DNA of 64,000 bases from Candidatus Latescibacterota bacterium (GCA_965207885.1 OZ242311.1:4800001-4864000), one strand, 5' to 3'; positions 30,987 through 51,931 are shown, counted from the first letter of the stretch. The notes: generated from the letters alone by a model not told the origin. Numbers and translations: made by a program.

Positions 30987-31973
30987 CTATTCCTCTAACA
31001 ATTGATCGATGAGATCGACCGGGGTGATGCCTTCGGCTTCGGCGTTGAAATTCGTGACGAGGCGATGGCGCAAGACGGGTTTGGCGACAAAAGAGACGTC
31101 GTCTATAGAGGGTGCAAAGCGTCCGCTGAGTACGGCGCGCGCTTTGGCGCCCAGGATGAGGCATTGGGAGGCGCGCGGGCCGGCGCCCCATCTGAGCATG
31201 TTGCCGATGGATGTGTCTGCATTTTGAGGGCGGGTTTTGCGGACGAGATCCACTGCGTGATCTACGATGTGATCGGCTACTGGAACTTTGCGGATGAGTT
31301 GCTGGAGGTTGCGAATTTGTTCGGCGTTGATTACGGGCTGTACGTCGTGGGTTTGGGCACCTGTGGTGGCTTTGACAATGGCGCGTTCTTCTTCTTGGGT
31401 GGGATAATCGATCCACAGGTTAAATATGAAGCGGTCGAGTTGGGCTTCGGGCAGGGGATAGGTGCCTTCTTGTTCGATGGGATTTTGAGTGGCTAAGACA
31501 AAGAACGGTTCTTCGAGGCGAAAGGTTCCTCCCCCGGCGGTAACTTCGTGTTCTTGCATGGCCTGCAATAAGGCTGCCTGGGTTTTGGGCGGGGTGCGGT
31601 TGATTTCATCGGCCAGGATGATGTTGGCAAATAAGGGACCTTTGACAAAGCGAAATGCTTTGTGTCCGGTGGTCTGGTCTTCTTCGAGGAGTTCTGTGCC
31701 CGTGATGTCTGAAGGCATGAGGTCGGGTGTAAATTGGATGCGGCTAAAAGACAGGTCAAGGGCGCGCGCGAGGGTGCTGATGAGGAGTGTTTTGGCAAGG
31801 CCGGGCACGCCTACGAGCAAACAATGGCCCCCGCAGAGGAGGGCGATGAGTAGTTGATCGACGATTTCCCGCTGTCCAATAATGACTTTGCCAATTTCGG
31901 CGACGATCTGGTCATACGCGGTTTTTAATTGTTCAACTGCCTGGAGGTCTTCGTGAGGCGATGCTTCGGGCAT
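30987..31973 (-). CDS. MoxR family AAA+ ATPase
   Basis: GVPGLAKT, RIQFTPDLMPSD, DEINR and NPIEQEGTY motifs. ATG at 31973. Confidence 0.93.
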   Translation of the reverse strand: MPEASPHEDLQAVEQLKTAYDQIVAEIGKVIIGQREIVDQLLIALLCGGHCLLVGVPGLAKTLLISTLARALDLSFSRIQFTPDLMPSDITGTELLEEDQTTGHKAFRFVKGPLFANIILADEINRTPPKTQAALLQAMQEHEVTAGGGTFRLEEPFFVLATQNPIEQEGTYPLPEAQLDRFIFNLWIDYPTQEEERAIVKATTGAQTHDVQPVINAEQIRNLQQLIRKVPVADHIVDHAVDLVRKTRPQNADTSIGNMLRWGAGPRASQCLILGAKARAVLSGRFAPSIDDVSFVAKPVLRHRLVTNFNAEAEGITPVDLIDQLLEE

Positions 31974-31986
31974 TTTGTTTCCTTTC

Positions 31987-33321
31987 TCAGGTTTTGCGTT
32001 TTTCTTTTTTCGCCGCCGGGAAGAGAATATTGTTGAGGATGAGGCGATAGCCAGGCGAATTTTTGTGCAGTGCGAGTTGCGTGGGCGGGTCGTTGACAAA
32101 GTGTTGATAGTCTTCCGGATCGTGTCCCGCATAAAATGTGAATGTGCCCTTCCCGATGTTGCCGTGGATGTATTTGACGTGGTCGGTGCCGGGTATGTCG
32201 CCCATAATGGTGACGGATTTTTTGATGCGATTTTTGCGAAAGGCCGTTGTTTGGCCCAAAAAGCCGGGGACGATGGGTGTGTGGTTTTGCGTGAGCATAG
32301 TGGGCACGGGATCGTATTTTGCCGAGAATTCAAATAGTGAAAAGGCGTCGATATCGGCATTTTTGATCTGGCTCATTTCAATGGGCGACAGGTCGATGTC
32401 GCCGTGTTCGTATTCGAGGGGGTCCATAACGAGGTTGAAGTTTTCAAAGGCTACTGTGCGTGAAAAATCGAGTTTTTGACGCGCCTGTGGGTCTGCGGGG
32501 TCGCCGTCGTAAACGCTATCGACGATGTCGATTCCTCGCGCGGCAAGGGCAATGTCAAATGTATCGGTGGCCGAGCACATGGCAAAGAGAAATCCGCCCT
32601 GTGCGACGTAGTTGTAAATGGCCTGTGCAACCGCGCCTTTGAGGTGGGAGACTTTGGCAAAACCCAATTTGCCAGCGAGGGCTTTGAATCCGGCCTGTTG
32701 TTGGCGGTACCAGAGGGTGTGGCCGTGGCTGCGATAAAATTTGCCGTATTGTCCTGTGAAGTCTTCGTGGTGCAGGTGCAGCCAGTCGAAGTTTTCGAGT
32801 TTGCCGCTGAGGACTTCTTCGTCCCACAGGGTGGTGTAGGGTATTTCCGCGTATGTGAGGGCCAGTGTGACGGCGTCGTCCCAGGGCTGTTTGTTCGGGG
32901 GGGTATAGACGGCGATGCGAGGAGCTTTTTCAAGGCGCATGCGGTTCATGTTGCCGGATTCAATATCGGCGTAGATGCGCGTGGCCTGCGCGGCTGAGAT
33001 GGCCTGGAATGAGACGGCGCGGATGCGGGCTTCGCGCGCGATGGTTTCGTGGTTGTCGATGAGGAAGGAGCCGCCGCGGTAGTTGAGCAACCATTCGACG
33101 GGATGGCCTTGCTGCAATGCCCAATACGCAATGCCGTAGGCTTTGAGGTGATCTGTTTGCGATACGTCCATGGGGATGAGTATTTTGCCGACGTTCGCGC
33201 TGCCACCACCAATCGCCGCTGTGCAGGGAGATGATGTTGCGAGAATAAGGGCGAGAAGTGTGAAGTAAGAAGTAAGAAGTATGAAATGGGTATGTCTTGC
33301 ATTTTGCCGCTGTATTTTCAT
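31987..33321 (-). CDS. Conserved secreted protein with a glutamine amidotransferase-like domain (often annotated 'asparagine synthetase B' in FCB genomes)
   Basis: ILIPMD..Q..HLKAYG, WLHLHHEDFTGQYGKF and FAMCSATD motifs; hydrophobic N-terminus. The ATG lies inside the 23-bp repeat. Confidence 0.7.
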   Translation of the reverse strand: MKIQRQNARHTHFILLTSYFTLLALILATSSPCTAAIGGGSANVGKILIPMDVSQTDHLKAYGIAYWALQQGHPVEWLLNYRGGSFLIDNHETIAREARIRAVSFQAISAAQATRIYADIESGNMNRMRLEKAPRIAVYTPPNKQPWDDAVTLALTYAEIPYTTLWDEEVLSGKLENFDWLHLHHEDFTGQYGKFYRSHGHTLWYRQQQAGFKALAGKLGFAKVSHLKGAVAQAIYNYVAQGGFLFAMCSATDTFDIALAARGIDIVDSVYDGDPADPQARQKLDFSRTVAFENFNLVMDPLEYEHGDIDLSPIEMSQIKNADIDAFSLFEFSAKYDPVPTMLTQNHTPIVPGFLGQTTAFRKNRIKKSVTIMGDIPGTDHVKYIHGNIGKGTFTFYAGHDPEDYQHFVNDPPTQLALHKNSPGYRLILNNILFPAAKKEKRKT

Positions 33322-33993: not shown

Positions 33994-34101
33994 CAGGTTT
34001 TACCTTCTAAAATACATTTCACAAAGATGGTTTGGTAAACAGTTTTTCGCCTTTTCTATACCCGGTTCTGCACTGGTAGTATGTGGTATAATGCTTTGAG
34101 G

Positions 34102-35310
34102 TCATGCAGGAATATTGAAGACGAGCACGGTGAGTATGATTTCCCTGTTTGCATCATCGCGGTGGCTGAGTATGTACCGAAAACCAGTCTCTGAGTCATA
34201 GTCCCTATTCGTTTTGTAGTTAGGATGGTCTTTAACTGCTTCGGGTATCCTCTTGAGGACGGTGGACATCTCGGCGTCTCGATTGAACACGAGAAGGGCG
34301 ATCTTCGTATCCCTCCAGGTAGAGTAATTCAGCAACTGATCGATGGATTTTCTGAATGCCTTTGGACCTTTCCAAAATTTGCATTCAGCGATGAATATGT
34401 TTTTACCCCCTACGCGGATTAGGATGTCAGTCTTGCCATCGAAGTTAAAGGTTTCGGCTGTGGCCTGTCCCTCATAGTGACCATTGAGCTGTACGAGAAA
34501 GTGTTGCCGCAGGTCCTCCTCTTTCATGTCTTTGAAAGCCTTAGGACTGCGCTCAATGACCATGACCATGTCTGAAACGATTGATAGGATATGTTCATAC
34601 TCTTGCATATCCAGTGCGGGTTCGGGTTTGTAGGGTGCCATGGAGGCTGGCGGAAGTTTCGGAGTGATAACCCGTTTCACTTGCGACGCAATATAGGTAA
34701 TGGGTGTATCGTTCCTGCGCCGGAGTGGGAAACCTATATTCTCCACCAGATCTCTATCCCTGAGTATTTTCTCACGTCTGGCTTTGATTCCTTCAGACGC
34801 CGTTTCACGAATTGACGAGTTGAATGATGTAACATCCCCCTCAACCCATTTCAGGTAATTTTTTAAATTCGCCAGTTCCGACTTGAACTCACTCTCAATT
34901 TGCGCGGCTTCAGAGGTTGTCCGCTCGTATATCATCTCAATCTCGCTGTCTCCCACGTCTGCGCGTGGCGGGTTGAAGTTAAAGTGCGATGGCTGTAGCT
35001 CGAATAGACTTGGATCGCCCGTGAATGGTATGTAAAACGTGATACTGGTTCCCGTTACAGATTGAGTACGTCCGTAATCCCATCTATAGCTTACGTCGAT
35101 CTCAGCATCGTCGTAATCTGCTTGGATTTGCAATTCATCAATTTGAAGTGCTTCTACTTTGTATTTTTCGATAAAGTAGTTACACAGGTCTTCTTCTGAA
35201 GTATTGAGTATCCGGTTTTCATCGAGTGAATTAATCTCATCACGCATCTTTTGCCCTTGAGTGCGGAGGGCATCGCTAAGATATCCCCCATTGAATAGTA
35301 AGTCTGTCAC
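34102..35310 (-). CDS. Hypothetical protein with a C-terminal PD-(D/E)XK-like nuclease motif
   Basis: EEDLR...E...GKTDILI...IAECKFW. GTG start with GGAGG RBS. Confidence 0.65.
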   Translation of the reverse strand: MTDLLFNGGYLSDALRTQGQKMRDEINSLDENRILNTSEEDLCNYFIEKYKVEALQIDELQIQADYDDAEIDVSYRWDYGRTQSVTGTSITFYIPFTGDPSLFELQPSHFNFNPPRADVGDSEIEMIYERTTSEAAQIESEFKSELANLKNYLKWVEGDVTSFNSSIRETASEGIKARREKILRDRDLVENIGFPLRRRNDTPITYIASQVKRVITPKLPPASMAPYKPEPALDMQEYEHILSIVSDMVMVIERSPKAFKDMKEEDLRQHFLVQLNGHYEGQATAETFNFDGKTDILIRVGGKNIFIAECKFWKGPKAFRKSIDQLLNYSTWRDTKIALLVFNRDAEMSTVLKRIPEAVKDHPNYKTNRDYDSETGFRYILSHRDDANREIILTVLVFNIPA

Positions 35311-35479
35311 TGTTTCAGTACCTCCGTTTGCATCTATTGGTTATTTTTTTCAGTAATACTTATCCAGTTCTTATAGGATATTAGAGGTATATAATTTTTT
35401 AATGATGCACAAATATACCAAAGGAGCAGTTTAACACTCAAAAGAAATTTAATATTTCGAATATTTTTTGCCCTTGTCT

Positions 35480-36472
35480 CTACAAAAATTTTTCACCGGC
35501 ATGATCTGTGAACGAATCGGCATCGCGGATGTATTTCATTACAGTTGAGGGATTTGTGTGTCTGGTGATTTCCATTATTTTATCTAAGCGAGCATTGTGA
35601 CAAGCCGCGCTGGTAACAAAACCAGCCCTTAATGAATGTCCTGATATTTCCTTCTCATCTAAGCCACTTAATTTCGCATAATGTTTAACTAAGCGGGGAA
35701 TATCCGAATGGTGCATTGGTTTGCCTCGCAGTGTGCCCCCACGCCTCATTGTCTGAAATACAGGACCATCAGTAATTCCCGATGCTTCCAGCCAATCTTG
35801 CAGCCTTTGTATAGGCTTTAAGTACTTGCCTCCTGGTATAGCGATCTTATGCCCTTTCCCTTCTTGATCTGTCTTTGACTTGCGAATATAGAGAAACATT
35901 TTTTTTCTACCATCTGGGGATGGTATGATTTCAATATCATCTGTTGTAAGTCCGCATATCTCTGATCGCCTAAGTGCACCAGCGAATCCAATAGCAATGA
36001 TTGCGGCGTCCCGTAGGCAGATTAATTTTTTCCCTACCTGATTTGCCGTCAGGTCACATATGTTCAGCATTTTTTTGATATGATATTCTCTTAACGCCTT
36101 GACCTGGCGGCAGGCTGAGCCTCTAAGCCGCGCAAGACCTTTCACAACAGCATTGACATTAGGATGGTTAGTAGGGGATGGGATTCCTAATTCAACATAT
36201 TTCCTATTGATTGCGCTCCGATATAAAACTACTGTACCCATAGAAAGTATTTTTCCACTTGCCGGTCTGGGACGTGTCGCCAGTTCAATCATAAAATTAG
36301 CAATGTCTTTTGGTGTGGCGGATAAAGAGCAGATGTTTTGCGAATCACAATAATCGCTAAAACAAGACCAACCTTTGTCATAGGCGATACGGGTATTGTC
36401 CGCTAAAGCGGATGAAACCACCTCGCTATAAAAGTCTATTTTGATTGCATTAGCCTGAGAAGATGATGTCAT
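35480..36472 (-). CDS. Cre-like tyrosine recombinase
   Basis: LRRSE (R), KSKTDQ (K), SGHSLRAG (HxxR) and H...VMKY (H, Y); N-terminal SAM-like domain. Confidence 0.92.
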   Translation of the reverse strand: MTSSSQANAIKIDFYSEVVSSALADNTRIAYDKGWSCFSDYCDSQNICSLSATPKDIANFMIELATRPRPASGKILSMGTVVLYRSAINRKYVELGIPSPTNHPNVNAVVKGLARLRGSACRQVKALREYHIKKMLNICDLTANQVGKKLICLRDAAIIAIGFAGALRRSEICGLTTDDIEIIPSPDGRKKMFLYIRKSKTDQEGKGHKIAIPGGKYLKPIQRLQDWLEASGITDGPVFQTMRRGGTLRGKPMHHSDIPRLVKHYAKLSGLDEKEISGHSLRAGFVTSAACHNARLDKIMEITRHTNPSTVMKYIRDADSFTDHAGEKFL

Positions 36473-36533
36473 TTTGAACTCCTGAGAATTGATTTGGATT
36501 GTACTAAATTGTTGAAACTATAAATATAAATAG

Positions 36534-37310
36534 TCAGAGATAAAAAATATTATCAAGGAGTTATCTATTAACTACGGAATTAAGACTCGTTACAATGAGG
36601 CTTTTATCATTGATAATCAGACTAAGGAGAGATTAATTATCCAAGATTCTAAATCTGCTGAAATCATTAGGCCAGTATTGCGAGGAAGGGATATTAGCCG
36701 TTACAAGGCTAACTGGGCGGGATTGTGGTTGATTGACACTCATAACGGATACGGTGATATTTCCGCTGTTGATATTGACGACTACCCGGCCATCAAAAGC
36801 CATCTGGACATATTCTACCCAAAACTGGAAAAACGCTACGATAAAGGCAGAACACCTTACAATCTCCGTAATTGCGCTTACCATGCAGAGTTCAAAAAAG
36901 AAAAATTGGTGTGGATTGAACTGGTCGAAAATGGGCGCTTTGCCTATGACCACAGCGGGATATACTGTGAAGCCACATCCTTTATAATGACCGGCGATTG
37001 CATCAAATATCTCTGCGTCTTGCTGAATGCAAAGTTAATACGCTGGTTTCTTCAGAAGACAGCACCAACATCGGGTATGGGAACTTTACGCTGGAAAAAA
37101 GCTTATGTTGAAACAATTCCCGTCCCCCAATTATCAGCGAGAGAGCAGTACCTGTTTATTGAACTAATGGAGCATATCCTGACGGCTAAAGCGACTGATC
37201 TGAATGCCGATATATCAGCTACTGAATCCGAGATTGACCTGCGGGTTTACGAATTGTATGGACTGACGGCGACAGAGATCTCCGCAGTGGAAGATCAGCC
37301 TTTACTATAG
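36534..37310 (+). pseudogene. Silent alternative C-terminal specificity (TaqI-C-like TRD) cassette
   Basis: Frame is open from 36534 with no ATG start at its 5' end. Begins KELSINYGIKTRYNEAFIIDNQTKE...IIRPVLRGRDI, paralogous to the C-terminal part of 37376-41116, in inverted orientation. Confidence 0.8.
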
Positions 37311-37375
37311 ACAATCAACGTGGCAACTCACAAAGCTATGTTTTTGCGCTATTTAGAATTTGATTTACTCAGGAT

Positions 37376-40300
37376 TTATCTTTTACCGCTTACCGCAGCG
37401 ATTTCTTTTTCGTCCAGATAGTAGAGGGTGTAGACTAGCCGGTCTATCTCTACCTCATGCTCGCTGACATCGGCTGTTGGATTAGAGGCTTTGGCCTTCA
37501 AGATGCGATCAACCAATCGTATGAACGAAACTTGCTCTGCTACAGTGAGTTTCGGAATAGGGATTGATTCTACGGAAGCATTAATCCATCTCGTAACACC
37601 CATTCCAGAATTCATGGCAGTGTTCTTCATAAACCAAGTTATCAGATTAGAATTAAGTAGGGCGCATAAATATTTGATTGATGGACCTGACATAATAAAT
37701 GCCGTGTTTAAGCAGAACAGACCATCCACATCATAGGCAAAACGTCCTTGTTCTGTCAGATCCATCCAGATCAGCTTTTCTTTGGAAAAATCTGTATGGT
37801 AAGCGCAAGTATCCTGTAATTCGTACCAAGCATGTGTAGTCTTTTTTCTTGACTTCGTGCCATTCGGAAGAGTTTTACCCGACTGTTCTAATCGCGTTTT
37901 GCCAAAAGACAGCAGATGCCTTTTCACTTCTGGATAGTCATCAATGTTGAGGCCAATAGCAGGAAATGTTGCTATCAGCCAGAGTTTTGTACTTTCCCAA
38001 TCAGCTTGATACCTCTGAATATCCCTCCCTCTTAAGACTGGCCTAATAATCTCAGCCGACTTTGGATCTTTTTTAACCAGTGCTTCCTTAGTCTGATTAT
38101 CGATGATAAAGGCACTATTATAACCGGTTAAAACTCCTCGGTAAATAGATATATCCCACTCCTTCAGCGGCACTCCAACGGTTTCCATCTTGTCCATAAT
38201 GGGTTGCTCTATGGCTGAAAGTGCGCTCCAGGGCTTTTCGCTCTGTGGTTGAAATGTCCCCCATAAGTGCTCAGCGGGCGGAAAGTTTTTATTGGATAAG
38301 TGGTCCATATCCACTGCCTTACCGGTCTCATTGCTTTTGCCTTCGCGTATTATCAGTATATTGGTGTCAACAATAGCATTTTCAAAAATGTCCTTGCCCA
38401 TTTCCAGCAATTGTAATGGTGTCTGTTGTTCGGAAAAGTAGCGGCGTGTGGATTTGCCGTACTCTGCTCTCAGCCAGCTATTGGAAGTGATAAAGCATAG
38501 CAAGCCACGTTGTGGTGTGAGCAATTGGCAGCCTTTTTCGTAGAAAAGTTGATAGATATCACCGGTGGAGGCAAAGGTTTCAAAATCAGCGTATTGATAA
38601 CGGCGTCGCAGTTCCCCTCTGTTTTTTTGCAGTTGAATGTACGGCGGATTCCCGATGACCATATCAAAACCGCGCGTTATGCCGAACATATACTCGGGAT
38701 CAAACCAGTCGGCTTTTGCATTTTGGTCGTACGGTTTCCAGTGGGCGACTTTTTGTGCGGTCTCAAGGCTGGCATCGAAACGTTTTTCGCGCAGACTATA
38801 CTTTTTTAGCTCATCTTCACGCAATTTTTTTCTGTCTTTCGGGTTGGGAATCTGGGCAACTCTTTCGTCTATGTCCCGTTGCTGGCGCGTTGCCCATTCT
38901 TCTTTTTGTGCTTTCAGTGCTTGATCCAATTGGTCACGGCAGGCTTGCTCCTCGCGGGTGTATTGAAGCTTTTGTGGTCGGTTGTTTGCGAGAAAATACT
39001 TTTCACGAATCGCCTCAATTTCTTTTAGCAATTGCTGTACAGTGTCATCTTGAAGTAGAGATCTGGCTTCGGATAGCTGTAAACCGATCAGCGTATCTGC
39101 TGCGACAAAGCGTGTCTCTAAATTCGGCAGGGGCTTGATGCCGAAGTTGTCGGCATTCTTATCTTGTTCTTGCTCAATTGCCAGCGAAATGAAAAAACGC
39201 AGTTTGGCGATCTGGCAAGCAATAGGCTGGATGTCCACGCCGAAGATGCTGCTTTGAATCAGGTATAGCTTACGCCCAAAGTCGCCCGAATATCGCTCGA
39301 AGGTTTCGCTAATTTCCAGCAATTCGGCATAGCGTTCTTGTTGGTTTTTGGTCTCAAACGCCGCGTCTGCCTTTGCTTTGGCGCGTTCTTTTTGCAGGGC
39401 TTCCCAACGAGTGTTGTCGGGATCAATTCGCCGCAATGCCAGGGTGAGTTTGTGCAGCATGCCCATCGGAAATGCACCGGAACCAACCGCGGGATCCAGC
39501 ACTTTGATCTCTGCAATCGCCCGCACAATGCCCTCTGCTTCTTCTTCCTCAAAAAGCTCTTTGGCGTCGTCGAATGCGTCCTCATAATCCAGCAGATAAC
39601 GCAAGCGTTCTTGCCAGAAGGCCCTGTCGCCATCGGTAGGCTGGCTGTTCTCGGTGAGTGATGCCATTAGGGCCTCATCTACCATGTAGTCCACCACGGG
39701 GCGCGGGGTATAGTAAGAGCCAGTCTGTTTGCGGGCTGTTTCGCGTGTCTCAGGGTTGTAAGCTGCCAGCAGGTTTTCAAATACCTTGCCGAGCAGTTCA
39801 GGATCGAGTGCGACTTCCTGCTCTATAGGGGTGTTCTCTTCCACCGTGAACTTGTAATTTTCGAATAAGGTGATCAGCCCGTTGGCACCAAAAAACAGGC
39901 GGTTGGGAATAGAATAGTCACGGCGCTGGGTGGGGTTGTCGGTAAAGCAGTCCAGACGAGTGCCACCGGCTTGGACGCCTTCAAAGCTGTCCAGGCAGTC
40001 AAACAGGCCACCGTTGATAAAGGGCGTCTGATTGAAGAGTTGGCGTAGGCCATCTGAGTCGGCCATCTCTTCCTTGTATCGGTACACGGAGGGATTGCGG
40101 TGGTCGGTACGATTCTGTTTGCTGAAACGACGCTTTTCAATCTCGGTGTTCAGGGTGGCGAAAAACAGGTTTTGCAACACAGCGCGGTAGTAGGAGTCGC
40201 CGGTTTCGTGGTCGTAATTTTTTAGGAGGTCACGAACCTTATTCTTTATGAACAGGTCCTCGGCGATCAGCCCCTTTTCTTTGATAAACCAGACGAATAG

Positions 40301-41116
40301 CAGGCGGGTAATGAGGCGGATGACGTGTTCTTCCGATGATATGGTCTGTGTCTGATTCTTGGGAAAAGTGGCTTCCGCGATAGCGCGCTCAAACCAGTTG
40401 TACAAATCCCGATAGAATTGACGGTTGAGTTCCTGGGTATCCAGTTTGGCCAGCTAGGCGGCGAGCAAGCCATCAAAATTGTGCGATTTGTTGTGATCGT
40501 TCATCCACGTCAGCAGATTTGATAGGGATAATTCCTCAAGGATATCCAGATGTGCACGATACGGCTTATTGGGATGAATATCTTTAATCAATGTGACGCT
40601 CTCCAGCACGTTCCGAGTGTTATCGCGCTTGTGCGGGCGGCGGTGAACAAAGGCGAGGGTGAGCAGGTTGGATGGGGTTCGGAAAAGTACGACGGAGGGT
40701 TGGCTCAAGCGCTTGTTAATCTCGCGGGTGAATTCCGCGTACTGCCCGCGAGCATAGGTGTCTTTCTTCAGTTCTACGGCGGAGAAGATAAAACTACTTG
40801 TGTTGCCCTTGTCAAAAGAAGCTGGTTCAAAAATCAGCGTCTGCTGATTACTGGAAGCGATTTCATCGCTGGTAAGCTGAAAAATGAACCGCACGGATTG
40901 GGCGTTTTCACAGAATGCCTGCTCGGTCTTGGTGTTCTCGTTTGGAGCGGGAAATTGCTGGATGAAGTCTTCTGGATGACCCGAAAGTTCCAACGTGCGA
41001 TCACTCTGGTATCCAAGGACTTTCAGTAGGTCTTTAGTCGTCGCCAGAAAATCGCTATCAGGTATCGTTGCCAGAGCCGATAGAATCTGTTCCTTTGGTT
41101 GAATAACACTGCTCAT
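37376..41116 (-). CDS. Type IIG/Eco57I-like N6-adenine methyltransferase with TaqI-C TRD; in-frame TAG at 40454-40456 (split gene or pseudogene)
   Basis: ORFs 40454-41116 and 37376-40405 are in the same frame. GSYYTP, VLDPAVGSGAF (motif I), GNPPY (motif IV) and a C-terminal TRD. Confidence 0.88.
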
Positions 41117-41238
41117 TGGATCTGCTCCAGAGGATTAGACATTGCCATACTTCCGCTCCCATCAATAATTGTCTATATAGTTCCATTTCGGTCGCAGGAA
41201 CATTTTCGATTCGGAACTTCATTCGCCAATCACGGCGT

Positions 41239-42879
41239 TCAATAGTTTATCTTATAGGGCCATGTAATCAGCGTCTCCAGCGCCTGGTAACTCATTCGAC
41301 GGCGCAGTTTGCTGAGTGCTTGATTCTTGATTTGGCGGATGCGCTCGCGTGTGAGATTCATCATGGCACCGATTTCCTGGAGCGTTAGGGGGCCGTTGTC
41401 ATTAAGGCCAAAATAGAGCCTGATAACGCGCGATTCGTGCTCTTTGAGAAGCCCCAGGGCTTGCATCAGCGCTGATTTGCGCAAGATGTCGGCGTCAAGA
41501 GGAGTTGTCGTGTTATCGGTCAGGGTGTCAAGCAGGCTGTGATTGTCGTCAGAGAGGGATTCGTCGAGAGAGTACACGTCGAAGTCGCTGAGGATAGTCT
41601 CTTGGATCTTCTTGACTGGAACTTCAAGCTCGGTGGCGATTTCTTCCAGGTCCTCTTCAGCCGGAACTTCAAGTTCGGCGGCGATTTCTCCTATATCAGG
41701 CTCACTAACCCAGTCTTGGCCCAGTTTGCGCGAGGCTTTGGAAATTTCCCTGAGCAAGCCGACCTTGTTGTGGGGGAGACGCACGATACGCGCCTGCTCG
41801 GCGAGCGTTTGGTGAATAGATTGGCGAATCCACCAGACCGCATAGGTAATAAATTTGTTGCCCCTCGTCCCATCGAAGCGGTCAGCCGCCGTAATCAGTC
41901 CGAGATTGCCAGCGCTAATCAAGTCAGAGAGGGGCAGACCGAGGTTCTGGTATCTCTTGGCCTCGTTAATGACAAAGCGCAAATTCGCCTGGATCATTTC
42001 ATCGCGGGCGCGCATGTCGCCACTTTTGATGCGGTCAGCCAGTTCTACTTCGCGCTCCCTCGAAAGCGGTGTGGACTCAGCAATGTCGTCGAAGTAAAGT
42101 CGCAGATTGTTCGTCTCTCCTTCTGGGATTTTTTTTTCGGACACCGCCTGTTCAAACCAGGAGAACATATATCGGTAGAATTGCCGGTTGCGCTCTGTGG
42201 CGTCCAGTTTGGCAAGCCAGGCAACCAGCAAGCCTTCGCAGTTGTGTGGCTTGGCATTGGAATTCATCCACACGGTACACTCGGGTAGTGATAGCTGGGA
42301 CAAGATGTCGATATCGGTACGCCGTGGATTCTCTAAAGAAATATCCTTGCTCAACGACGTGACGCGCTCCAGCACATCACGGCTATCATCAAGCTTATGC
42401 GGACGGCGACCAATAACCGCGACGGTCAAGCGTGCTCCAGCGCGGAAGAAGACCACGGTTGGCAAGATTATTCGCTTGCCGATCTCCCGCGTTAATTCGT
42501 CATATATCCCCCGGGCATAGTTGTTCTCCTTAAGTTCCACGGCGAAGAAGAGAACGCTTTTCTGCCGGCCCTCCTTACGGGAAGTACCCTCAAGCCCAGA
42601 CGTCTGCTGATTAGCTGAGAGGATTTCGTCATTTGTCATCTGAAAGACGATCAGTATGGATTGGACGTGCTTGCGGAATGTCTGTTCAGTGCTGGTGTTC
42701 TCATTTGGGGCGGGAAATTGCTGAATGAAATCCTCTGGATTGCCTGATTGGTCAGGCAAGATGCGCTCGCTCTGGTACCCGAGAACATTGAGAAGATCTC
42801 TGATTGCCGATAGAAAATTTTTGTTGGACACACCGACCAAAGTAGCTTGAATACGCTCTTTGAGGTCGCCATTGTTCAT
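41239..42879 (-). CDS. Fusion of an R-M N-terminal domain with a complete sigma-70 factor
   Basis: Residues ~1-255 align with the MTase N-terminus (shared PEDFIQQFPAPNENT, AVELK, RRPHK, LAKLD...NRQFY). The remainder has ANLRFV, DLISAGNLGL, YAVWWIRQ and TRERIRQI. Confidence 0.9.
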   Translation of the reverse strand: MNNGDLKERIQATLVGVSNKNFLSAIRDLLNVLGYQSERILPDQSGNPEDFIQQFPAPNENTSTEQTFRKHVQSILIVFQMTNDEILSANQQTSGLEGTSRKEGRQKSVLFFAVELKENNYARGIYDELTREIGKRIILPTVVFFRAGARLTVAVIGRRPHKLDDSRDVLERVTSLSKDISLENPRRTDIDILSQLSLPECTVWMNSNAKPHNCEGLLVAWLAKLDATERNRQFYRYMFSWFEQAVSEKKIPEGETNNLRLYFDDIAESTPLSREREVELADRIKSGDMRARDEMIQANLRFVINEAKRYQNLGLPLSDLISAGNLGLITAADRFDGTRGNKFITYAVWWIRQSIHQTLAEQARIVRLPHNKVGLLREISKASRKLGQDWVSEPDIGEIAAELEVPAEEDLEEIATELEVPVKKIQETILSDFDVYSLDESLSDDNHSLLDTLTDNTTTPLDADILRKSALMQALGLLKEHESRVIRLYFGLNDNGPLTLQEIGAMMNLTRERIRQIKNQALSKLRRRMSYQALETLITWPYKINY

Positions 42880-43264: not shown

Positions 43265-43543
43265 TCAATGATAGTCAACGATAGCTACTTCCGCTGGTCC
43301 GGAATCCGTCCATCGAAAGACGATACGCCATTGGTCGTTGATCCGTATAGAGTGAAAGCCCGACAGATTGCCTCTGAGAGCTTGTAAACGATTGCCCGGA
43401 GGGACAGCGAGATCGCTGAGTGTGCGAGCCTGATTCATTTGTATCAATTTTCGCAATGCAACGCGAGATATAGCTGCAAAACGACGGTTATGTTCGGAGT
43501 AGAACAGTTCTTCAGTATCCCGGTTTGCGAAGGATTGAATCAT
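43265..43543 (-). CDS. higB: HigB/RelE family toxin
   Basis: [25 protein letters not shown] and VDYH motifs; ATGA overlap with the helicase stop. Confidence 0.92.
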
Positions 43544-46500
43544 GGTGTGTGCATCCCCGAATCGAGGATGATTAACCACGTTACCAACTCAAAATCACCA
43601 GTAGAATTTTCAGATTTTACTGGCAATCTAAAATCGCTCTGACCGTGAATGCCCATTCCCTGGATCTGTGTTGAGGTGTTTGCCCTGTTGATGTGCTTCA
43701 TAACCTCGTCCAGCAATTGATCGTAGCGGACCATGTCCTTGCCGTTTTGGGTTTCGTGGTCAAACTGGTCACAGAGCTTTTGCAGTGGCTCGGTTTTGCC
43801 AATGGCTGCGGATTCAAATAATTCCAGCACTCGTCTGGCATTGGCACAACCGTAGCGAATGTCGCCGCTATCGCGGATATACACGGCGTAATAAGGATGA
43901 ATTGGGCTGGCTACTTTTTCGCGTTTATCCTCGCTGGCGTTGCGCTGGCGCAGGAAGAATATCACGCCCGGCCTTGTGGAATCGCTCCCACCGTCGGTCA
44001 GAGCATAGGCTCCATAGGGCGTTGCCTCCAGTTCTGCTTTGTTTTGTTCTAAATATCGCAACAATTGGGCAAAGAAGTAATCGAGGGTGAAATCGCTCAG
44101 GACGACGCCGTCGGATAACTCGTCAAAGTCCAGCACTTCTTCACGCAATTTTTTTAATTGTTCGTCGCGGAAGTTGAGTTCCATTTGCGCTTCTTCAAAG
44201 GCGTATTCGTTCAACGGGTCATCGTCACCGCTGGCCGCTGCGTCTGCCAGAGCCATGCGCGCTTCTACGCGGCTTTGCAGGCGTAAATAGGCGTCCATGT
44301 CTTTGGTGGGCCAGTAGTTGATCATTTGCACGGATCGGTTGCGGCTGCCAATGCGGTCAATGCGTCCAAAGCGCTGGATGATGCGTACGGGATTCCAGTG
44401 GATGTCGTAGTTGAGCACGGTGTCGCAGTCTTGCAAATTCTGCCCCTCCGAGATACAGTCGGTGGCAATGAGCAGATCAATTTCTCCGTCCACGCCGTTG
44501 CCGCGTTGGCGTGCGCGTGGGGCAAAGTTGGTCAAGATGGCGTTGAAGTTATTATCGCCAAAAGAGGTGTGTGTCGCGTCACCGGATACCATTGCCATGT
44601 TCAATCTGTGTTCTTTTGCCAATTCTGCCAGGTTTTCGTAAAGATATTCCGCTGTATCCTTAAAGGTGGTGAATACCAGCATCTTGCGGTTGATCTTGCT
44701 GTCCTGATCAGTCGTCGGATTTTGCGCCTTACCCTGAATGTGTTCCCGAATGGTTTTGAGCTTGTCATCTCGTGGCGGTGTGATGGCACGGACCTTTTCC
44801 CAGGCTGCTGTGAGGGTTTGCTTGTCTTTTAGTAAGTCTTTTTTCCAGCGAGGCAAATCCAATTCGCGCAGGTGGTAGGGAGTGCGCGCCCGATTGATCA
44901 GAAACTCCTCGTCATCTTCATCTTCGTCGGGCAGTATATCGGCCTGTGCATCCTGTATCGTGGGTTTCTGCTCGTAGCGATGTATCTTGTCTAATAGATC
45001 GTCGATTTTACCGATGGTACGCCAGAGTGTTTCCGTGAGCGCATGCGCGGAACTCTCCAGACGTTTGAGAAAGTTCGTCTGCATCATGCCAATGAGAAAG
45101 CGCTCGCGGTCTGCCTGATTGAACCGCAGTTGTTTTTTTTCATCCGCCAACCGTTTCTTTGCCTCTGCGCTGGTGACATAGCTGGATGGCTGGTAGATGG
45201 ATAGGGCGAATTGACCTATCTGATTGGCCAAATCCCGATAGGACAGTTCGCCTCTTATGTCGGTTTGTGGATAGACATTATCCGGTGCCTGTTGTGTGGG
45301 AAATCTGCCGATTCTGTCTATTTCCCGGGCGTAAAACGTCTTGATCTGTCGCCGCGAGCGGGCAATGGAGACGCCGCCCAGTAAATGAAAGAAATCAGGA
45401 CCCAGCTTATCTAACAATTCAGCCTTATCTCTTTTTGTAGTTGAATTATTCTCCCAGGCCTTAAACTCCTTTTGCGCCCGCCCCAGCAAGGTCCCGATAT
45501 GCCCAATGCCCAGGCTGTTGCGGAATACATCCTCGCGCTTTTCGGTCATTAAATAGATTTGATTGCGCAGGTCAATAAGCGAGGTGTTGACCGGTGTCGC
45601 CGAAAGCATCAGTACTTTGGTTTGGGTGCCTTCCTTGATCACCTCCTCCAACAGCCGCGAGTAGCGGCTATGGCGAATATTGCCGTCGTCGTCTCTGCGA
45701 GGTTTTGATTCATTGCGGAAGTTATGGGATTCATCGATAACCACCAGATCGAAATTGCGCCAGTTGAAATTTGCCAGATCGATAGTGCCTACTTCTCCGC
45801 TATTGCGGGACAAATCGGTGTGCGATAGCAGCGTGTAACCGAAGCGGTCATCGTCGAAAGGATTGCTGGTATGGGAGTTATACGCCGGATACAGTGCCCA
45901 ATTTTCGCGCAGCTTTTTCGGGCATAAGACCAGCACCCGCTCGTTTCGCAATTCAAAAAATTTGATCGCAGCTAATGCCGTGTAGGTTTTTCCCAGCCCT
46001 ACGCTGTCGGCTAAGATACAGCCATTGTGCCGCAACAGGCGGCCGATAACGCTTTTGGCTCCGTCTTTCTGGAAATCGTATAGCTTGTTCCAAATTTGGG
46101 TATCGTAGAGGTGTGTATCCTCCAGTTGGCTTTCGCCCCTTTGTCTATCTTCTATGTCTTCGCGGAACAATTCGTAGAGTGTTTTGTAATAGATAAACTC
46201 TGGCGCGTGGTCTTTACCGATTCGCGCCAGTGCGCGCAGTACATCCCTTTTCACATTTCTGGTCAAATCCTCGTCTGTCCACAGTTCGTCAAACCAGGCG
46301 CTGAGTTCGTCGCGTATTTCAGTGTCGCCAGTCGCCAGGTTGATTTCCACATTTGCACTCGTTCCACAGCCCAAACCGCTCCGGGTAAAGTTGGAACTGC
46401 CGACCACTGCTGCGCCGCCGTTTTCAGATTCGGTGAGATACATTTTGCCGTGCAAAAAATTGGATTTGCTAACAGATCGAATTTTGACCCTTCTGCTGCG

Positions 46501-46830
46501 TACCCATTTGGCGCATTGCTGTGCGAGATATTTTTGCTGTAATGCGTGATTGGGCGAGAGTTGACCTTCGATTAACTCAAAAGATTTTTCCGTTTTCTCG
46601 CTGGGATCTACTTCGCCAACCGATGCTGGGTCGCCAAAGAGAAAGCGCACATCCTTTACATTCTGCAATTCGTTTTGCAGGGCATCGTACCCGTAAATGG
46701 TAAAATACGCCGATACCAGCCGGAATATGTCCGCGGTGGGCAGATGTGCGCGTAGATAATCGACGACCGTATCGAGGCGATTGTCTAAGATATGTTTGTC
46801 TTTTTGCGTTTTGGTATCCTGCTGTGTCAT
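43540..46830 (-). CDS. SNF2-family helicase with an N-terminal phospholipase D-type nuclease domain
   Basis: HGKMYL...GSSNFT (PLD), [18 protein letters not shown] and [10 protein letters not shown] motifs. Confidence 0.9.
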
Positions 46831-46849
46831 CCCGCTTCCTTTGTTTTTT
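46827..46849. repeat. Right 23-bp direct repeat
   Basis: Identical to 33318-33340; contains the TPR gene stop and the helicase ATG. Confidence 0.9.
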
Positions 46850-48662
46850 CAAGGGTCTGGATTTTTTGTCGGAGGTTTCGCAAGCGCTCGCGTGCTATGT
46901 CGGCTTCGAGGCTTGTGGGATAGTTGACGAGCAGGGTTTCGTAGATTTTTTGCGCGTCGTAATATTGGCCGAGGTATTTGTCGTAGATCGCGCCCTGTGC
47001 GATGTATGCGGCGGGGGAAAGTGGACTATGGGGTTGTGTGGCGATGAGTTTGCGATAGGTCTGAAGGGCTTGTGGGTAGCGTTTTTGGTCGGTGTAAATT
47101 TTGGCCTGATGGTCGAGCAAGCGATCCGCGAGAAAGGATTGCGGATGGGCGCGATGGAGGGTTTCAAATGCGTGCAATGCCCCGTTTTGATCTTTTTGGC
47201 GCAGTTTGAGGCAGGCACTGGCATACGCGCTGAGCAGGGTTGCGTCTGCGCGCTGGCCTTCTTGTAATAGCGCGGATAGGGCGATGGTGTCGTTTATGAT
47301 ATCGCGGTTGACATCTGTTTTGAGCACGGCGTCGAGCAGGGTTTGAGCCTGGTCAATCTGGCCCGATAGAAAATGCAATTCGGCGAGGCGAAAACGGGCT
47401 TCGGTCGCTTCGGAGGCGGTCGCTCTTTCGGCGATGATCTGGTGGTAGATGAGCCGCGTCTTATCTGTGTTGTCCGCCTGTAGATGTCCTTCGGCGAGGG
47501 CAAATAGCGCTTTGTATCGCCAGGTGCTGCGTCGATGGGTCTGGATCAGGTTTTGAAATGCCTGTTGGGCACCTCCGGCGTCGTTGTGGTGGTCGCGCAA
47601 GATGATGCCCACGAGAAAACGGGCTTCGTCGGCCTCTGCGCGGTTGGGGTGACGGGTGATGAGGTCGCTGTAGTGGTTTTGTGCCTCGGCGGGGCGGTTT
47701 GCAAGCTGATATGCTTTGCCCAGGCCCAATTGTGCACGCGCCAGATGGTCGGAACGGTCTGCGCGGTCACATATTGCCCGATAAGCGGCAATAGCGGTTG
47801 TGGGATTTTCATTGTCGAGGGCATAGTGCGCAATGCGGAACAGATAATTCCAGTTATTGTCTGTGGGCGCATTGGGCGAGAGCAAAAGGTCGAGTGTTTG
47901 CGCGACAAACCCAGCGGGCAGGGCGTATTCGATGAGCAGACTGAGATCGGTTTGGTCTTTGGGCGATGAGAGCAGGTCAAAGACCTCGGCATGCTGGTCG
48001 CCGTTTTGGGCCATATCGCGCAGGCGTGCTTCAACGTGTGCGCGGTATTGCGGGTTTTGCCGAATCCAGATTAGATATTCGCGCACGGCATCGGGATAAT
48101 GGGCGCGGCGTTCGGCGAGTTCGGCGAGTTCGCGGGCAAAATGCGTTGTGTTTTTGAGTGCGGTTCTCGCGCGGCGATAGGTCTGTTCGGCGCGTTTGTC
48201 GAGGTTGCGTTTGCGATAGCGGTCGGCAATGATGGCAAAGGGATGTGTGTTGGTCGCCTTCTGGAGCAGAGGTTCCCAGGATGCAGCTGCGGAATCTATT
48301 TGTCCCAGTTCAAAGAGGGCGATGCCCAGGCGAAGGCGTGCGTTGTTATCGTTTGGAACAGATGAGAGGCGTTGGCGAAATAGCACGGCGACTTCGTCAT
48401 GCCTGCCCGCCCGCGATAGTGCGGATTCGAGGCGCATGAGAAGGTCGGCGCGATGGGGATGCTGGATGTAAAGGCCGCGGTAGATGTAGATCGCGCTCGT
48501 GAAGTCCTTTTTTGCTTCAAGGGCTATTGCGCGCTGGATCGCGGCGTTGATCTGCTCGGTAGATGCAGTGGCAATCCCCGCGCATAAGAGGAGGAGTGCG
48601 ATATAGCAACTACCTCGCAAAAACCAAATTTTATTCGTCCGTTGTCTTTTTCGCATCTTCAA
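46827..48662 (-). CDS. Secreted tetratricopeptide repeat protein
   Basis: Signal peptide followed by repeated TPR-like helices; exact start uncertain. Confidence 0.8.
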   Translation of the reverse strand: MKMRKRQRTNKIWFLRGSCYIALLLLCAGIATASTEQINAAIQRAIALEAKKDFTSAIYIYRGLYIQHPHRADLLMRLESALSRAGRHDEVAVLFRQRLSSVPNDNNARLRLGIALFELGQIDSAAASWEPLLQKATNTHPFAIIADRYRKRNLDKRAEQTYRRARTALKNTTHFARELAELAERRAHYPDAVREYLIWIRQNPQYRAHVEARLRDMAQNGDQHAEVFDLLSSPKDQTDLSLLIEYALPAGFVAQTLDLLLSPNAPTDNNWNYLFRIAHYALDNENPTTAIAAYRAICDRADRSDHLARAQLGLGKAYQLANRPAEAQNHYSDLITRHPNRAEADEARFLVGIILRDHHNDAGGAQQAFQNLIQTHRRSTWRYKALFALAEGHLQADNTDKTRLIYHQIIAERATASEATEARFRLAELHFLSGQIDQAQTLLDAVLKTDVNRDIINDTIALSALLQEGQRADATLLSAYASACLKLRQKDQNGALHAFETLHRAHPQSFLADRLLDHQAKIYTDQKRYPQALQTYRKLIATQPHSPLSPAAYIAQGAIYDKYLGQYYDAQKIYETLLVNYPTSLEADIARERLRNLRQKIQTLEKTKEAG

Positions 48663-51600
48663 TCAGGTTTTCAAAATACCGCCGGATGAGGGCCTGGTAT
48701 TCGGGTGAATATCCCTCTTTGAGGGCGTCGCGCATCAGATGGCGCAGGGGGTTGTCGGCTTCTCCTAAGTCTGCGGGGAGCGTTCCCGGTCCGCGATAGG
48801 TCAAATTTACGCCCGTGCGCGCCTGTCGCTTTTTGCTCTTTCCGCGCGATCTCATCGCCTGTTGGGCATCGAGCATGCGGGAGAGGATCTGTCGCTGTCG
48901 CATGAGGGTTTGGGGTGCGACCTGGCGTTGGAGAAGTTCGCGTGCGGTTTCCTGCATGTCGCTGGCAATTTTGCCCAGGTCGCCGAGCATTTCGCGCTGT
49001 TGCCGCGCCAATTCGCCGCGCAGGGCATTGAGCGCGTCCCGGATGGCGCGCTGTTGGGCCGCGAGTTTTTGCCACGAGGGTTGGCCACCTTGCCCGGATT
49101 GCCCAAATAGATTTTCGGTTTGGGCGTTGAGTGATCCCTGTTGTTGGGCGAGTTGGGCCATTTTTGCCATCATTTCTTCAAAGCCCGTGCCCGATTCCGA
49201 AGAGGCGAGTTGTCCCAGTGCGTTCTGTACCATCATGGCTCCGCGATTGATTTCTCCCATGGCTTCGCGGGCGAGTTGGGCCGCCTGAGTGGCATTGCCC
49301 GCGTTGAGTTGTTCGGCAGCGCCATCCATTTTGTTTAAGGCCTGACCGAGGGCTGCCTGTGCGCTGGGGGGCATAAAGAAGGTTTTTTGCGAGGCGTCCA
49401 TCAGGCGTTGTGCCATGCGCGATGCCCCGGTTATCGCACGCGCCTGGTCCAGGGCGAGGGGAGCGGTGTCGTCGCGACTTCCAGCCTCATTGGCGCGCTG
49501 TGCCGTGCGTTCCTGCGCCTGGGATAAGGTGAGGAGATCGTGCAATACGCGGTTGAGTTCTCTGGCGATTTCTTCTTTTTGTCGCTGAATAAATTGTTGT
49601 CGGGCCTGTGCGAGGTTCTGGCTCAGGTTTTGTAAGTCCCGGGCGAGAGAATCGCTGTTTTGTCCCGCGCTTTGCCGTTGCCCCAGGGCAAGGTCCTGGC
49701 GCACTTGATCCATGCGAGGGGTGAGTTGTTTGTTTTGTATTGCGTTGGCGATTTGGTCGAGTTCGCCGTCAGTGGGGTTGTCCATTTTTTGCGATGCTTG
49801 TTGCAGTTCTGTGCGCAATTGTTCTGTGTCTCGGGCGATGCGTGTCTGGCGGCGGGCGAGGTCTTCGGTGGGTTCGCGTTCGATATTTTGCGTGATCTGA
49901 TCCTGGGCGTGGGCGAGTTCTTCGAGTTTTTGGTTGAGCGCGTCGAGGGTTTGTTGTTGTTGAACGCGCCGCAAAAGGGCGAGGGTGCGGTCGATGCTTT
50001 CGCGGAATTTTTCGCGCTCCATCTGAAATTGTTCAAGAGCCTCGCGCACCATGTTTGCATCGGCACTTTTGATGGCTTCGTCCAATTTTTTCATGACGGC
50101 CTCGAGTTCTGGCGTGCGAATTTGCGAAAGCAATGTTTGTAGTTCTTCGAGTTTTTGCAGGGTATCGTCTTCGAGTAATCCGCTTTCTTGCAGGCGGTCG
50201 AGTGCGCGTTCGAGTTGTTCGGCTGTGGATTCAATTTGTTCGGCGAGTTGTTCTTGTGTTTGGCGCACTTTTTCGAGTTCGCGTTTTTCCTGCCAATCGA
50301 GTTTGTCTTTGGAGAGCATATCGCGGGCGAGTTCTTTGAGGCGCGCGTCGAGTTCGCGCCCGCGTTGTTGCACGGTTTCGATCTCGTCAATGCTTTCGCG
50401 CTGTGTTTTGTCCGCTTCTCGATGGATTTCAAACAGGCTGGGCATGCGAATTGTAAAGGTGGCTGTTTCCCCATAAGAGGGTCTGGGGTTGTTGTCGTAA
50501 GCGCGGATTCTGTAGGTGATTTGATCGCCCGGTAGCAAGTCGAGGTTGGACAGGTCCCAGTGATAAGATGTCTCAATTTCGCGCCCGGGCGTTGTGATAA
50601 TTGGAAGGATGTGGTCTGTGTCGTCGTCTTTCTGGTATCTGAGTTGCAGGCGCGAGATGCCATAGTCGTCAAAGGCTTCGGCAACGAGGGAGACGCGCAT
50701 TGATTCTGTGAGGTCGATATCTTGTCCCGGTCGCAACAGGCGCACGTCGGGCGGTTGATCGGGCAGCGCGACAATGCGATATGTTACGGGGTCTTTGTTG
50801 GCGATCATATAGGGATCGCGCAAGTGTATGCGATAGCGCCCGTCTTTTTTCACTGTCAGGGTCGCCTGTGCAAGCGATGAAGATACTGAGGCGGGTAATT
50901 CGGTTGCGTCGTCAAATACGAGCGAGGCCGATTCGAGGGGTTTGTTGGCTTCAATGGTCAATGAAATTTCTGTGCCGATTGGTACAATTACGTCGCCGCC
51001 CTGTTGATCAATGCGGTCGGGCAGGGCTGTGTGCGGCGGAAATCGGTCGCGGTGCGAGATGCGCGTGACAATGGGGCGCGGGTGTACGGTTGCAGTGTAG
51101 GTGGAGGTTTGCGCGTCGTGGGCAGACAGGCGGTAGTCAAAAGATCGCGTGACATTGGGGAAGTGGTGAGATGTGCCCGTTTGTTTGACTGGTAAGACAA
51201 AAGATGCCCACGTTTGTACGCCTTTTTCGCGCACATACAGGCGCGCAGTGCGCGGAACAATGCCCGCAAATTGTGCGGTGAGCGTAAGTGGCTCCCCACC
51301 GATGATTTCGACATTGCCCGGTTTTAAAATTATGTACGTGTCTGGCGGGCGAGTGTATGGGGTTTGCGGGTTTGCGAGGCGTTGGGCTGCGCCGGATAAG
51401 GCCGTGGGCCATCCCGCGTGGAGCAAGAGCGCGACGAGGGCGAGCACGACAACTGCCGTGGCAGCGCGGATGGGTGGCTTGCGATTGATGAGTCTTTCAT
51501 AAGGAAGATGCTGTGTGGCGCGTTCTGCCTGGATGATTGCGGCATCGACGAGTGCGGTGGCGTGTTTTTCGCGGTCTCTTTGTCGCCACAATTGGAGTGC

Positions 51601-51921: not shown

Positions 51922-51931
51922 GGAACAGTGG

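Follow-up and report, generated by a model that had tools for sequence, protein, structure and literature searches.

A probable recombinase-driven inversion that exchanges the C-terminal target recognition domain of a methyltransferase gene in a Candidatus Latescibacterota bacterium

How could a single methyltransferase gene provide more than one DNA specificity? The question is raised by a locus in a 64-kb stretch of DNA from Candidatus Latescibacterota bacterium (GCA_965207885.1 OZ242311.1:4800001-4864000), called the window below, in whose coordinates positions are given. A run of genes occupies its minus strand, including an enzyme that ends in a target recognition domain (TRD). Facing it on the plus strand is a second TRD that lacks a start codon, the cassette, and directly beyond the cassette stands the gene of a tyrosine recombinase. 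The answer reached here, which is considered very probable, is that inversion driven by the recombinase swaps the C-terminal TRD of the enzyme in frame. Two junction forms were found at one pair of inverted repeats in sequencing reads of the probable source sample, and in related genomes the parts of the TRD are reassorted with breakpoints at this pair and at a second one. The features concerned are the following.

36534..37310, plus strand: start-less silent TRD cassette of 258 codons, modules b-B-B (TaqI_C; alignment to the enzyme TRD)
37376..40453, minus strand: methyltransferase and TRD part of the enzyme, 1025 codons stop to stop, in-place TRD with modules a-A-A (Eco57I, N6_Mtase, TaqI_C)
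37311..37375, no strand: spacer of 65 bp between two converging stop codons, which would flip in either inversion
35480..36472, minus strand: Cre-like tyrosine recombinase of 330 residues (Phage_integrase, E 1.1e-16), the presumed invertase
36557..36717, no strand: inverted repeat 1, left arm, with a 17-nt exact core at 36612-36628, in the motif AFIIDNQTKE
37996..38156, no strand: inverted repeat 1, right arm, with the 17-nt exact core at 38085-38101
36869..36949, no strand: inverted repeat 2, left arm, with a 13-nt exact core at 36872-36884, in the motif CAYH
37731..37811, no strand: inverted repeat 2, right arm, with the 13-nt exact core at 37796-37808

The cassette is open from stop to stop, its earliest possible start being a TTG at 36678, and it matches residues 767-1021 of the minus-strand enzyme with 135 identities in 259 positions (52%, E 1e-80). 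A TaqI_C domain was detected in it by a Pfam-type family scan, and the PADLOC model REase_MTase_IIG matches it with E 1.6e-64, only the C-terminal end of the model being covered. It lies tail to tail with the enzyme TRD, and the recombinase beyond it has the same strand as the enzyme. Thus, the start-less alternative TRD converging on the one in place and the tyrosine recombinase beside it, both parts of a switch proposed earlier from the sequence alone (the original prediction), are indeed present. No terminator-like site occurs in the 65-bp convergent spacer, and scans of 35300-41300 for promoters and terminators were uninformative, giving 17 promoter-like sites against 10.2 +/- 3.0 in shuffled sequences and 2 terminator-like sites against 6.5 +/- 2.7.

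The first pair of inverted repeats, 36603-36628 and 38085-38110, consists of eight exact bases, one mismatch and then 17 exact bases (36612-36628 and 38085-38101), and ATTAGGCCAGT occurs exactly at 36666-36676 and 38037-38047; both were found just where the original prediction had placed them, and a codon alignment confirmed that the arms of the two share one codon register. The second inverted pair has a 13-nt exact core, TTGCGCTTACCAT, at 36872-36884 and 37796-37808. The repeats are parts of longer imperfect inverted repeats, one of 161 nt at 71% identity and one of 81 nt at 75%, the latter enclosing the second core. The 17-mer of the first core has just two occurrences in the 6.2-Mb genome, inverted to each other. 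No loxP-like 13-8-13 site was identified at the crossover sites, which sit inside coding sequence. An attempt to place these sites on a solved TRD structure failed, as the shorter query lost 7lni and aligned only loosely to M.BseCI.

Evidence that the first pair is used comes from sequencing reads. Four runs contain all sampled words of 35400-40500 and represent the probable source sample, most of the other runs listed as containing such words being sponge metagenomes. For X19 and X22 (share of words 1.00), contigs and unitigs were taken from a k=31 graph, the contigs listed being a part of the whole. In both, contigs span 34000-36628, 36612-38101 and 38085-38501 and two unitigs of 43 nt, 36599-36641 and 38072-38114, connect them, so that the breaks fall exactly on the borders of the 17-bp core in both arms. 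Since the 30-mers at the four core borders are unique in the 6.2-Mb assembly, a branch of the graph at these borders means that the reads hold a second continuation on each side of the core. The depth agrees: the unitigs of the reference junctions reach 49.6 and, at 38072-38114, 45.5 in X19, where the flanks have 70.9-79.5, and 100 in X22, where the flanks have 144-145. The reference junctions therefore account for 62-69% of the flanking depth, which implies that a second junction form is present in roughly a third of the DNA in the probable source sample. Two junction forms at the outer pair are thus shown in this sample. The original prediction had proposed to look for both orientations in the reads; the graph branches and the loss of depth at the outer pair speak for two junction forms.

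Other breaks in the graph have other sources. The one at 38473-38501 is due to a sequence of about 30 nt shared with a second enzyme of the same family in this genome (G000:C1:6085854-6086609). Short loose ends of X22 at 36889 and 37787 were considered as a junction of the inner pair and rejected, as they come from a third type of sequence (FAQE) without a counterpart in the assembly, and the contig breaks of run X23 (share 0.40) lie at a depth of 3-7, which permits no interpretation. In X19 and X22, contigs at 38078-38113 continue from the conserved core into other TRD beginnings that the assembly lacks, and these point to further related enzymes or strains in the sample.

The comparison with related genomes, also suggested by the original prediction, extended the evidence to the second pair. 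Of 41 related genomes searched with the cassette, 18 gave a match. The order enzyme, inverted cassette, recombinase is found in six loci (window, G014, G019, G025, G004 and G012), and in G003 the contig ends inside the cassette. A recombinase is adjacent in all six cassette-bearing loci with sequence available and in none of eight enzyme loci without a cassette, all of these loci having been found via the TRD. Four relatives have cassettes whose frames stay open over 252-266 codons. The modules, which differ from each other in 42-57% of their residues, occur in new combinations: where the window has a-A-A in the expressed position and b-B-B in the silent one, G014 has b-B-A expressed and a-A-B silent, and G019 has a-B-A expressed. 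In the expressed TRD of G014, module 1 is 93% identical to the window cassette and module 2 is 93% identical to the expressed TRD of the window, and the G014 cassette is the reciprocal of this arrangement. At the cores, the nucleotide identity of the G014 and G019 genes to the two copies of the window changes between some 95% and some 55%. Further, a 1514-nt contig of a relative from a sponge metagenome (X1) carries 36885-37786 inverted between 36600-36893 and 37796-38110; its joint connects 36885 and 37796 on opposite strands through 13 shared letters, which are the inner core. Both crossover sites have thus been used, given the reassorted modules, whose breakpoints fall at both cores, and the inner inversion of X1.

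The sites are conserved beyond the window. In 6/6 loci of relatives, it is again at these two motifs that the longest exact inverted repeats are found, with lengths of 17-27 nt and 12-22 nt, and the two arms co-vary between genomes. Among 31 further loci, the first motif coincides with one of the top three exact inverted repeats in 23, and the second motif does so in 24. Codon choice at the motifs differs between loci with and without a cassette: Ile is ATC in 66/66 of the cassette-bearing sequences and in 6/13 of the cassette-less homologues, Asp is GAT in 65/65 and 5/13, Thr is ACT in 61/71 and 2/12, and Ala is GCT in 72/73 and 3/9, respectively. Because these particular synonymous positions are nearly fixed only in the presence of a cassette, while adjacent ones vary in both groups alike, the pattern points to selection on the DNA itself at both sites.

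The adjacent recombinase would be the catalyst of the inversion. A profile built from nine homologues and compared with solved structures has Cre recombinase as its best match (E 5.9e-14), near full length, with profile positions 27-305 aligned to Cre residues 56-336, in keeping with a two-domain architecture of the Cre type. Residues R168, K200, H279, R282, H305 and Y314 are invariant among the nine sequences, and we take them, by comparison with the residues of Cre, to be the catalytic R-K-H-R-H-Y set. Because the gene follows that of the enzyme on the same strand, it might be transcribed by read-through from it. The genome has one close copy of the recombinase and one relative of 35% identity. 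More than 575 relatives were found in genome_contigs, and layouts were scored in the best 80 loci: 29 have the order TRD, inverted TRD, recombinase, 4 have one TRD and 47 have none. The records of the 29 loci are named Thermodesulfobacteriota, Binatia, Arenicellales, Latescibacterota, Dehalococcoidia/SAR202, Caldilineaceae, Longimicrobiales and Gemmatimonadetes, among others, and sponge-associated names stand on other records among the same best 80. A scan of metagenome_contigs with the recombinase yielded only four loci at about 60% identity, none of the same species; two of the four have the order TRD, inverted TRD, recombinase, and the other orientation was not seen directly among them. In 31 relatives without a TRD pair, the context is heterogeneous (34 upstream-side ORFs, or open reading frames, scanned) and includes RTX-repeat, Mrr and transposase genes; close relatives adjoin large RTX-repeat proteins in four Gammaproteobacteria records (L038, L045, L049 and L050).

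Several observations weigh against a programmed switch, and most of them suit an explanation in which the paralogous TRDs have, in the course of evolution, undergone rare homologous recombination or gene conversion, leaving variants that are now fixed in co-existing strains or species, the integrase being unrelated and no programmed switching taking place. First, the 17-bp exact run is not far beyond expectation for two paralogues of 52% identity, although it exceeds that for random DNA; where the two copies have the same residue at degenerate codons, 58 of 129 codons are identical overall and 7 of 10 within the AFIIDNQTKE core. Since the arms are paralogous coding sequence, the run alone proves little, and the weight of the case falls on the reads and the relatives. 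The exact cores of 17 and 13 nt are also short; however, RecA-type recombination works poorly on exact stretches of 13-17 nt. Second, contigs with the alternative junction are not among the contigs listed, their existence being deduced from the graph breaks and the depth, and the sample is not a pure clone, 6/8 loose-end strings being absent from the assembly and some of these encoding other TRD variants. Co-resident strains, each fixed in one orientation, could produce the same pattern in the reads. Such related sequences favour rare recombination, as does the inner pair, which is unbranched in the source runs (contig 36612-38101 is continuous) and whose use is shown between genomes only; yet the graph breaks match the core borders to the base in both arms. 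Third, the codon test uses loci that are kin and controls drawn largely from a single phylum, and of the 22 control loci only 12-14 yielded the motif; the fixation of synonymous positions at both sites only together with a cassette nevertheless speaks against unprogrammed exchange. Finally, 47 of the 80 recombinase relatives are not beside a detectable TRD pair, so the family is not exclusive to the switch and the integrase might be a bystander, but its adjacency in 6/6 against 0/8 loci and the same gene order in 29 loci of many lineages speak for a function at the TRD pair. Rare recombination is consequently held to be unlikely, and recombinase-driven inversion is preferred; the switching would then occur within a clone and not between co-resident strains.

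In the mechanism proposed, the enzyme gene would end in a TaqI_C-type TRD composed of exchangeable modules, with a promoter-less and start-less second TRD placed tail to tail with it. Short sequences in AFIIDNxTK and CAYH, inverted in both copies and set in the same codon register, would serve as recombination sites, and the Cre-like recombinase would recombine both pairs. Inversion at the outer pair (36612-36628 and 38085-38101) would flip about 1.5 kb and replace everything after AFIIDNQTKE, and inversion at the inner pair (36872-36884 and 37796-37808) would flip about 0.9 kb and replace only the part after CAYH. Two crossover sites would thus permit four in-frame chimeras, A-A, B-B, A-B and B-A, each of which may recognise a different DNA motif. 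The inversion of about 1.5 kb that was originally predicted to swap the C-terminus in frame is in keeping with the read graph and the relatives; it was incomplete in that it allowed for one site and two states, where a second, inner site makes four chimeras possible. The resulting methyltransferase-TRD protein would act together with a helicase-nuclease encoded by a gene further along the minus strand, one of the features surrounding the switch.

40454..40456, minus strand: in-frame TAG splitting the enzyme gene (TGG, Trp, in four relatives)
40457..41116, minus strand: N-terminal 220-residue domain of the enzyme, here a separate ORF (40454-41116 with the TAG), fold weakly like a Type IIG nuclease domain
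41239-42879, minus strand: sigma-70-type protein with an unusual N-terminal domain (sigma regions 1.2 to 4)
43540..46830, minus strand: HKD (PLD) nuclease and Snf2 helicase (PADLOC HKD+Snf2), the conserved partner gene of the enzyme
34102-35310, minus strand: protein of 402 residues matching PDC-S54 (PADLOC defence candidate, E 1.3e-158)

The second inverted pair, the TAG codon and the HKD-Snf2 partner gene are all missing from the original prediction. The TAG replaces a conserved tryptophan codon, TGG, in the motif LLAAWL of four relatives, and it splits the gene into frames of 220 and 1025 codons, where the enzymes of relatives are single open frames of 1193-1316 codons. The contigs of the source runs do not differ from the reference over 39517-41500, TAG included. 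No amber suppressor was found among the 47 tRNAs of the genome. With the gene split by the TAG, the effect of switching in this strain is uncertain: as a further point against a working switch, the enzyme may not be made in full, and the inversion may flip a crippled gene. What had been called the expressed TRD is therefore correctly described as a frame with the TRD in place, the gene itself being interrupted by a nonsense codon.

Taken further, this would make the locus a decaying relic, with the enzyme a pseudogene, the cassette a leftover fragment and the inversion without biological consequence. The nonsense codon at a conserved tryptophan without a suppressor tRNA fits such decay, and the earliest and sole start of the 1025-codon frame after the stop is a TTG at 40405, 16 codons downstream; the TAG, however, amounts to one base change, looks recent, and is the only interruption of an otherwise open frame. 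The silent cassette of G004 is split by an insertion (L018, 9043-10271), its N-terminal piece lying beside the recombinase and its C-terminal piece beside the enzyme, and the long ORF of the insertion looks like an IS3-type transposase. This, too, counts in favour of a relic, but the cassette frame of the window runs uninterrupted over 258 codons and those of four relatives over 252-266, and the recombinase is intact and 94-97% identical to the copies of G014 and G019. A relic is considered very improbable, even more so than rare recombination, and an active inversion remains the preferred account of the TRD pair.

To which class does the enzyme belong? The 1025-codon part matches Eco57I (E 3.7e-34), TaqI_C (E 9.8e-15, residues 805-966) and N6_Mtase (E 1.2e-10), its translation contains VIGNPPYIQ with the NPPY motif of gamma-class N6-adenine methyltransferases, and the PADLOC model REase_MTase_IIG matches it with E 3.4e-144. 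The closest solved sequences are the adenine methyltransferase 7lni/8cxz and M.BseCI. The N-terminal domain has no match in Pfam, NCBIfam, PADLOC or PHROG and none by sequence in the PDB. Its AF2 model (pLDDT 88) gave weak similarities with VIA-align, the best to DrdV residues 2-142 (Z 5.7), followed by BpuSI 25-171 (Z 3.9), and nothing at E <= 0.001 with Foldseek; a candidate E-x-K (AVELK) is not invariant among 16 homologues. The label Type IIG-like, used from the start, is thus fair. The methyltransferase and a TRD share one chain, and the N-terminal domain is a candidate nuclease; owing to the TAG, the domains do not all stand in one polypeptide in this genome. Alternatively, the HKD domain of the helicase partner might supply the nuclease of the system.

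This partner matches PADLOC HKD+Snf2 with E 3.6e-110 and contains PLDc_2, ResIII and Helicase_C domains. The upstream side of the enzyme has a long HKD-Snf2 match of 23-94% identity in 9 of 14 related loci; in G004, G003, G006 and G001 the two are immediate neighbours. Because of this recurrence the two genes look like a two-gene system made of a helicase-nuclease and a methyltransferase-TRD protein. The second enzyme of the same family in this genome (L026) has a 1205-codon frame, a TRD of 53-55% identity and a distant HKD-Snf2-like gene upstream, with no cassette and no recombinase. The sigma-70 family protein encoded between helicase and enzyme has a match in the MZA defence system, namely the sigma part of the factor MzaA. 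Over its first ~215 residues it shares 54% identity with the N-terminal domain of the enzyme next to it, and G014 and G005 have this fusion gene in the same position. On the other side of the switch, the gene with the PDC-S54 match adjoins the recombinase here and in G014 and G019 (77-82% identity), and its product has no Pfam or NCBIfam family. Ordinary-looking neighbours, a cluster of DUF4159, DUF4175 and TPR proteins at 46827-52594 (minus strand) and a MoxR-type AAA ATPase at 30987-32360, flank this defence island of low G+C.

Could the switch travel as a unit? The G+C content is 0.42 over the recombinase, the cassette and the in-place TRD (35480-38173), against 0.50 in the rest of the enzyme gene and 0.51-0.55 in the flanks, and the N-terminal domain of the enzyme is only 78-87% identical between the window and G014 and G019, less than the recombinase. 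This drop in G+C together with the greater likeness of the recombinase hints that the switch block was transferred separately and recently. A more speculative proposal, which we regard as possible but doubtful, is that the TRD pair and the recombinase form a self-contained, horizontally mobile specificity module, by which half-TRDs are exchanged both within the cell and between unrelated members of a community. The sites would be hard-wired in coding motifs, as ATCATYGATAAY..ACTAAG in AFIIDNxTK and as TGYGCTTACCAY in CAYH. Exchange between community members is proposed because the same sites are kept across many lineages, many of them sponge-associated by name; if true, the members of a host-associated microbiome would draw their restriction specificities from a common pool.

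Provided that the chimeras differ in the motifs they recognise, a single locus would give a population up to four restriction or methylation specificities, which would amount to bet-hedging in phage defence and possibly to an epigenetic switch via methylation. That the layout is so widespread in uncultured lineages, most of them sponge-associated, suggests phase-variable defence to be common in such communities. The switch is a further member of a published class, its mechanism and type of system being already in print. What it adds are base-precise crossover sites in two coding motifs, comparative evidence for the use of both, and a signature at the codon level that tells switching loci apart from homologues that do not switch and could find such switches in metagenome-assembled genomes without read data.

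How does it compare with the systems already described? A search on inversion in restriction-modification systems of sponge symbionts found no paper on the subject. Allelic TRD diversity in Type IIG genes has been described without inversion (PMC2853133), and programmed inversions confirmed by long reads include 11 in Type II enzymes, homologues of Cj0031 among them, with cases in BREX PglX and DISARM DrmMI tabulated alongside (PMC9881135).

The nearest solved relative of the recombinase, Cre of phage P1, has the same pattern of catalytic residues; identity is low, the recombinase of the window has about 330 residues, and its sites lie inside coding sequence. The Type I hsdS invertons, such as SpnD39III/ivr of S. 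pneumoniae with PsrA/CreX (PMC4948785, PMC7096588), are alike in having a tyrosine recombinase, silent partial specificity genes and inverted repeats in coding sequence, and in producing several specificities by reassortment of half-TRDs. They differ in that a separate S subunit with two TRDs is varied there, whereas here it is the C-terminal domain of a single-chain methyltransferase, with one cassette and two sites.

Class 1 DISARM DrmMI loci (PMC9881135) likewise combine a large adenine methyltransferase, targeted by inversion, with a SNF2-type helicase. A DISARM assignment was rejected: its models match weakly in the window, a scan of the neighbours turned up no DrmA, DrmB or DrmC, and the helicase fits HKD+Snf2 (E 3.6e-110) far better than DrmD (E 7e-33). 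Closer in the design of the switch are the PglX loci of BREX type 1 in Lacticaseibacillus rhamnosus (NC_013198.1) and Brevibacterium casei (PMC9881135), where an Eco57I/TaqI_C-family adenine methyltransferase has its variable part swapped with a partial inverted copy by an adjacent recombinase, as here, including nested inversions. In PglX of L. rhamnosus both termini are constant (PMC9881135), whereas here the C-terminus itself is swapped. A BREX type 1 assignment was rejected: BREX_1_MTaseX scored 70.6 bits against a cut-off of 500, and the 14 neighbour ORFs scanned gave only weak BrxH-type helicase matches and no Brx or PglZ models, with no brxA/B/C, pglZ or brxL among them.

The system most like that of the window is the Cj0031-like one of Bacteroides ovatus (CP083813.1:5322008-5329826; Milman et al., NAR 2023, PMC9881135), which has homologues in three phyla. 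By the published description, with which the likeness is drawn, both have an Eco57I-type enzyme with inversions inside the coding sequence and a coding sequence for a PLD + SNF helicase upstream, and the coexistence of variants was demonstrated there by long reads. In B. ovatus the helicase lies immediately upstream, whereas in the window a sigma-factor gene stands between helicase and enzyme. To this published case, the window and its relatives add crossover sites in AFIIDNxTK and CAYH, a Cre-like recombinase, a nonsense-mutated enzyme and many further lineages.

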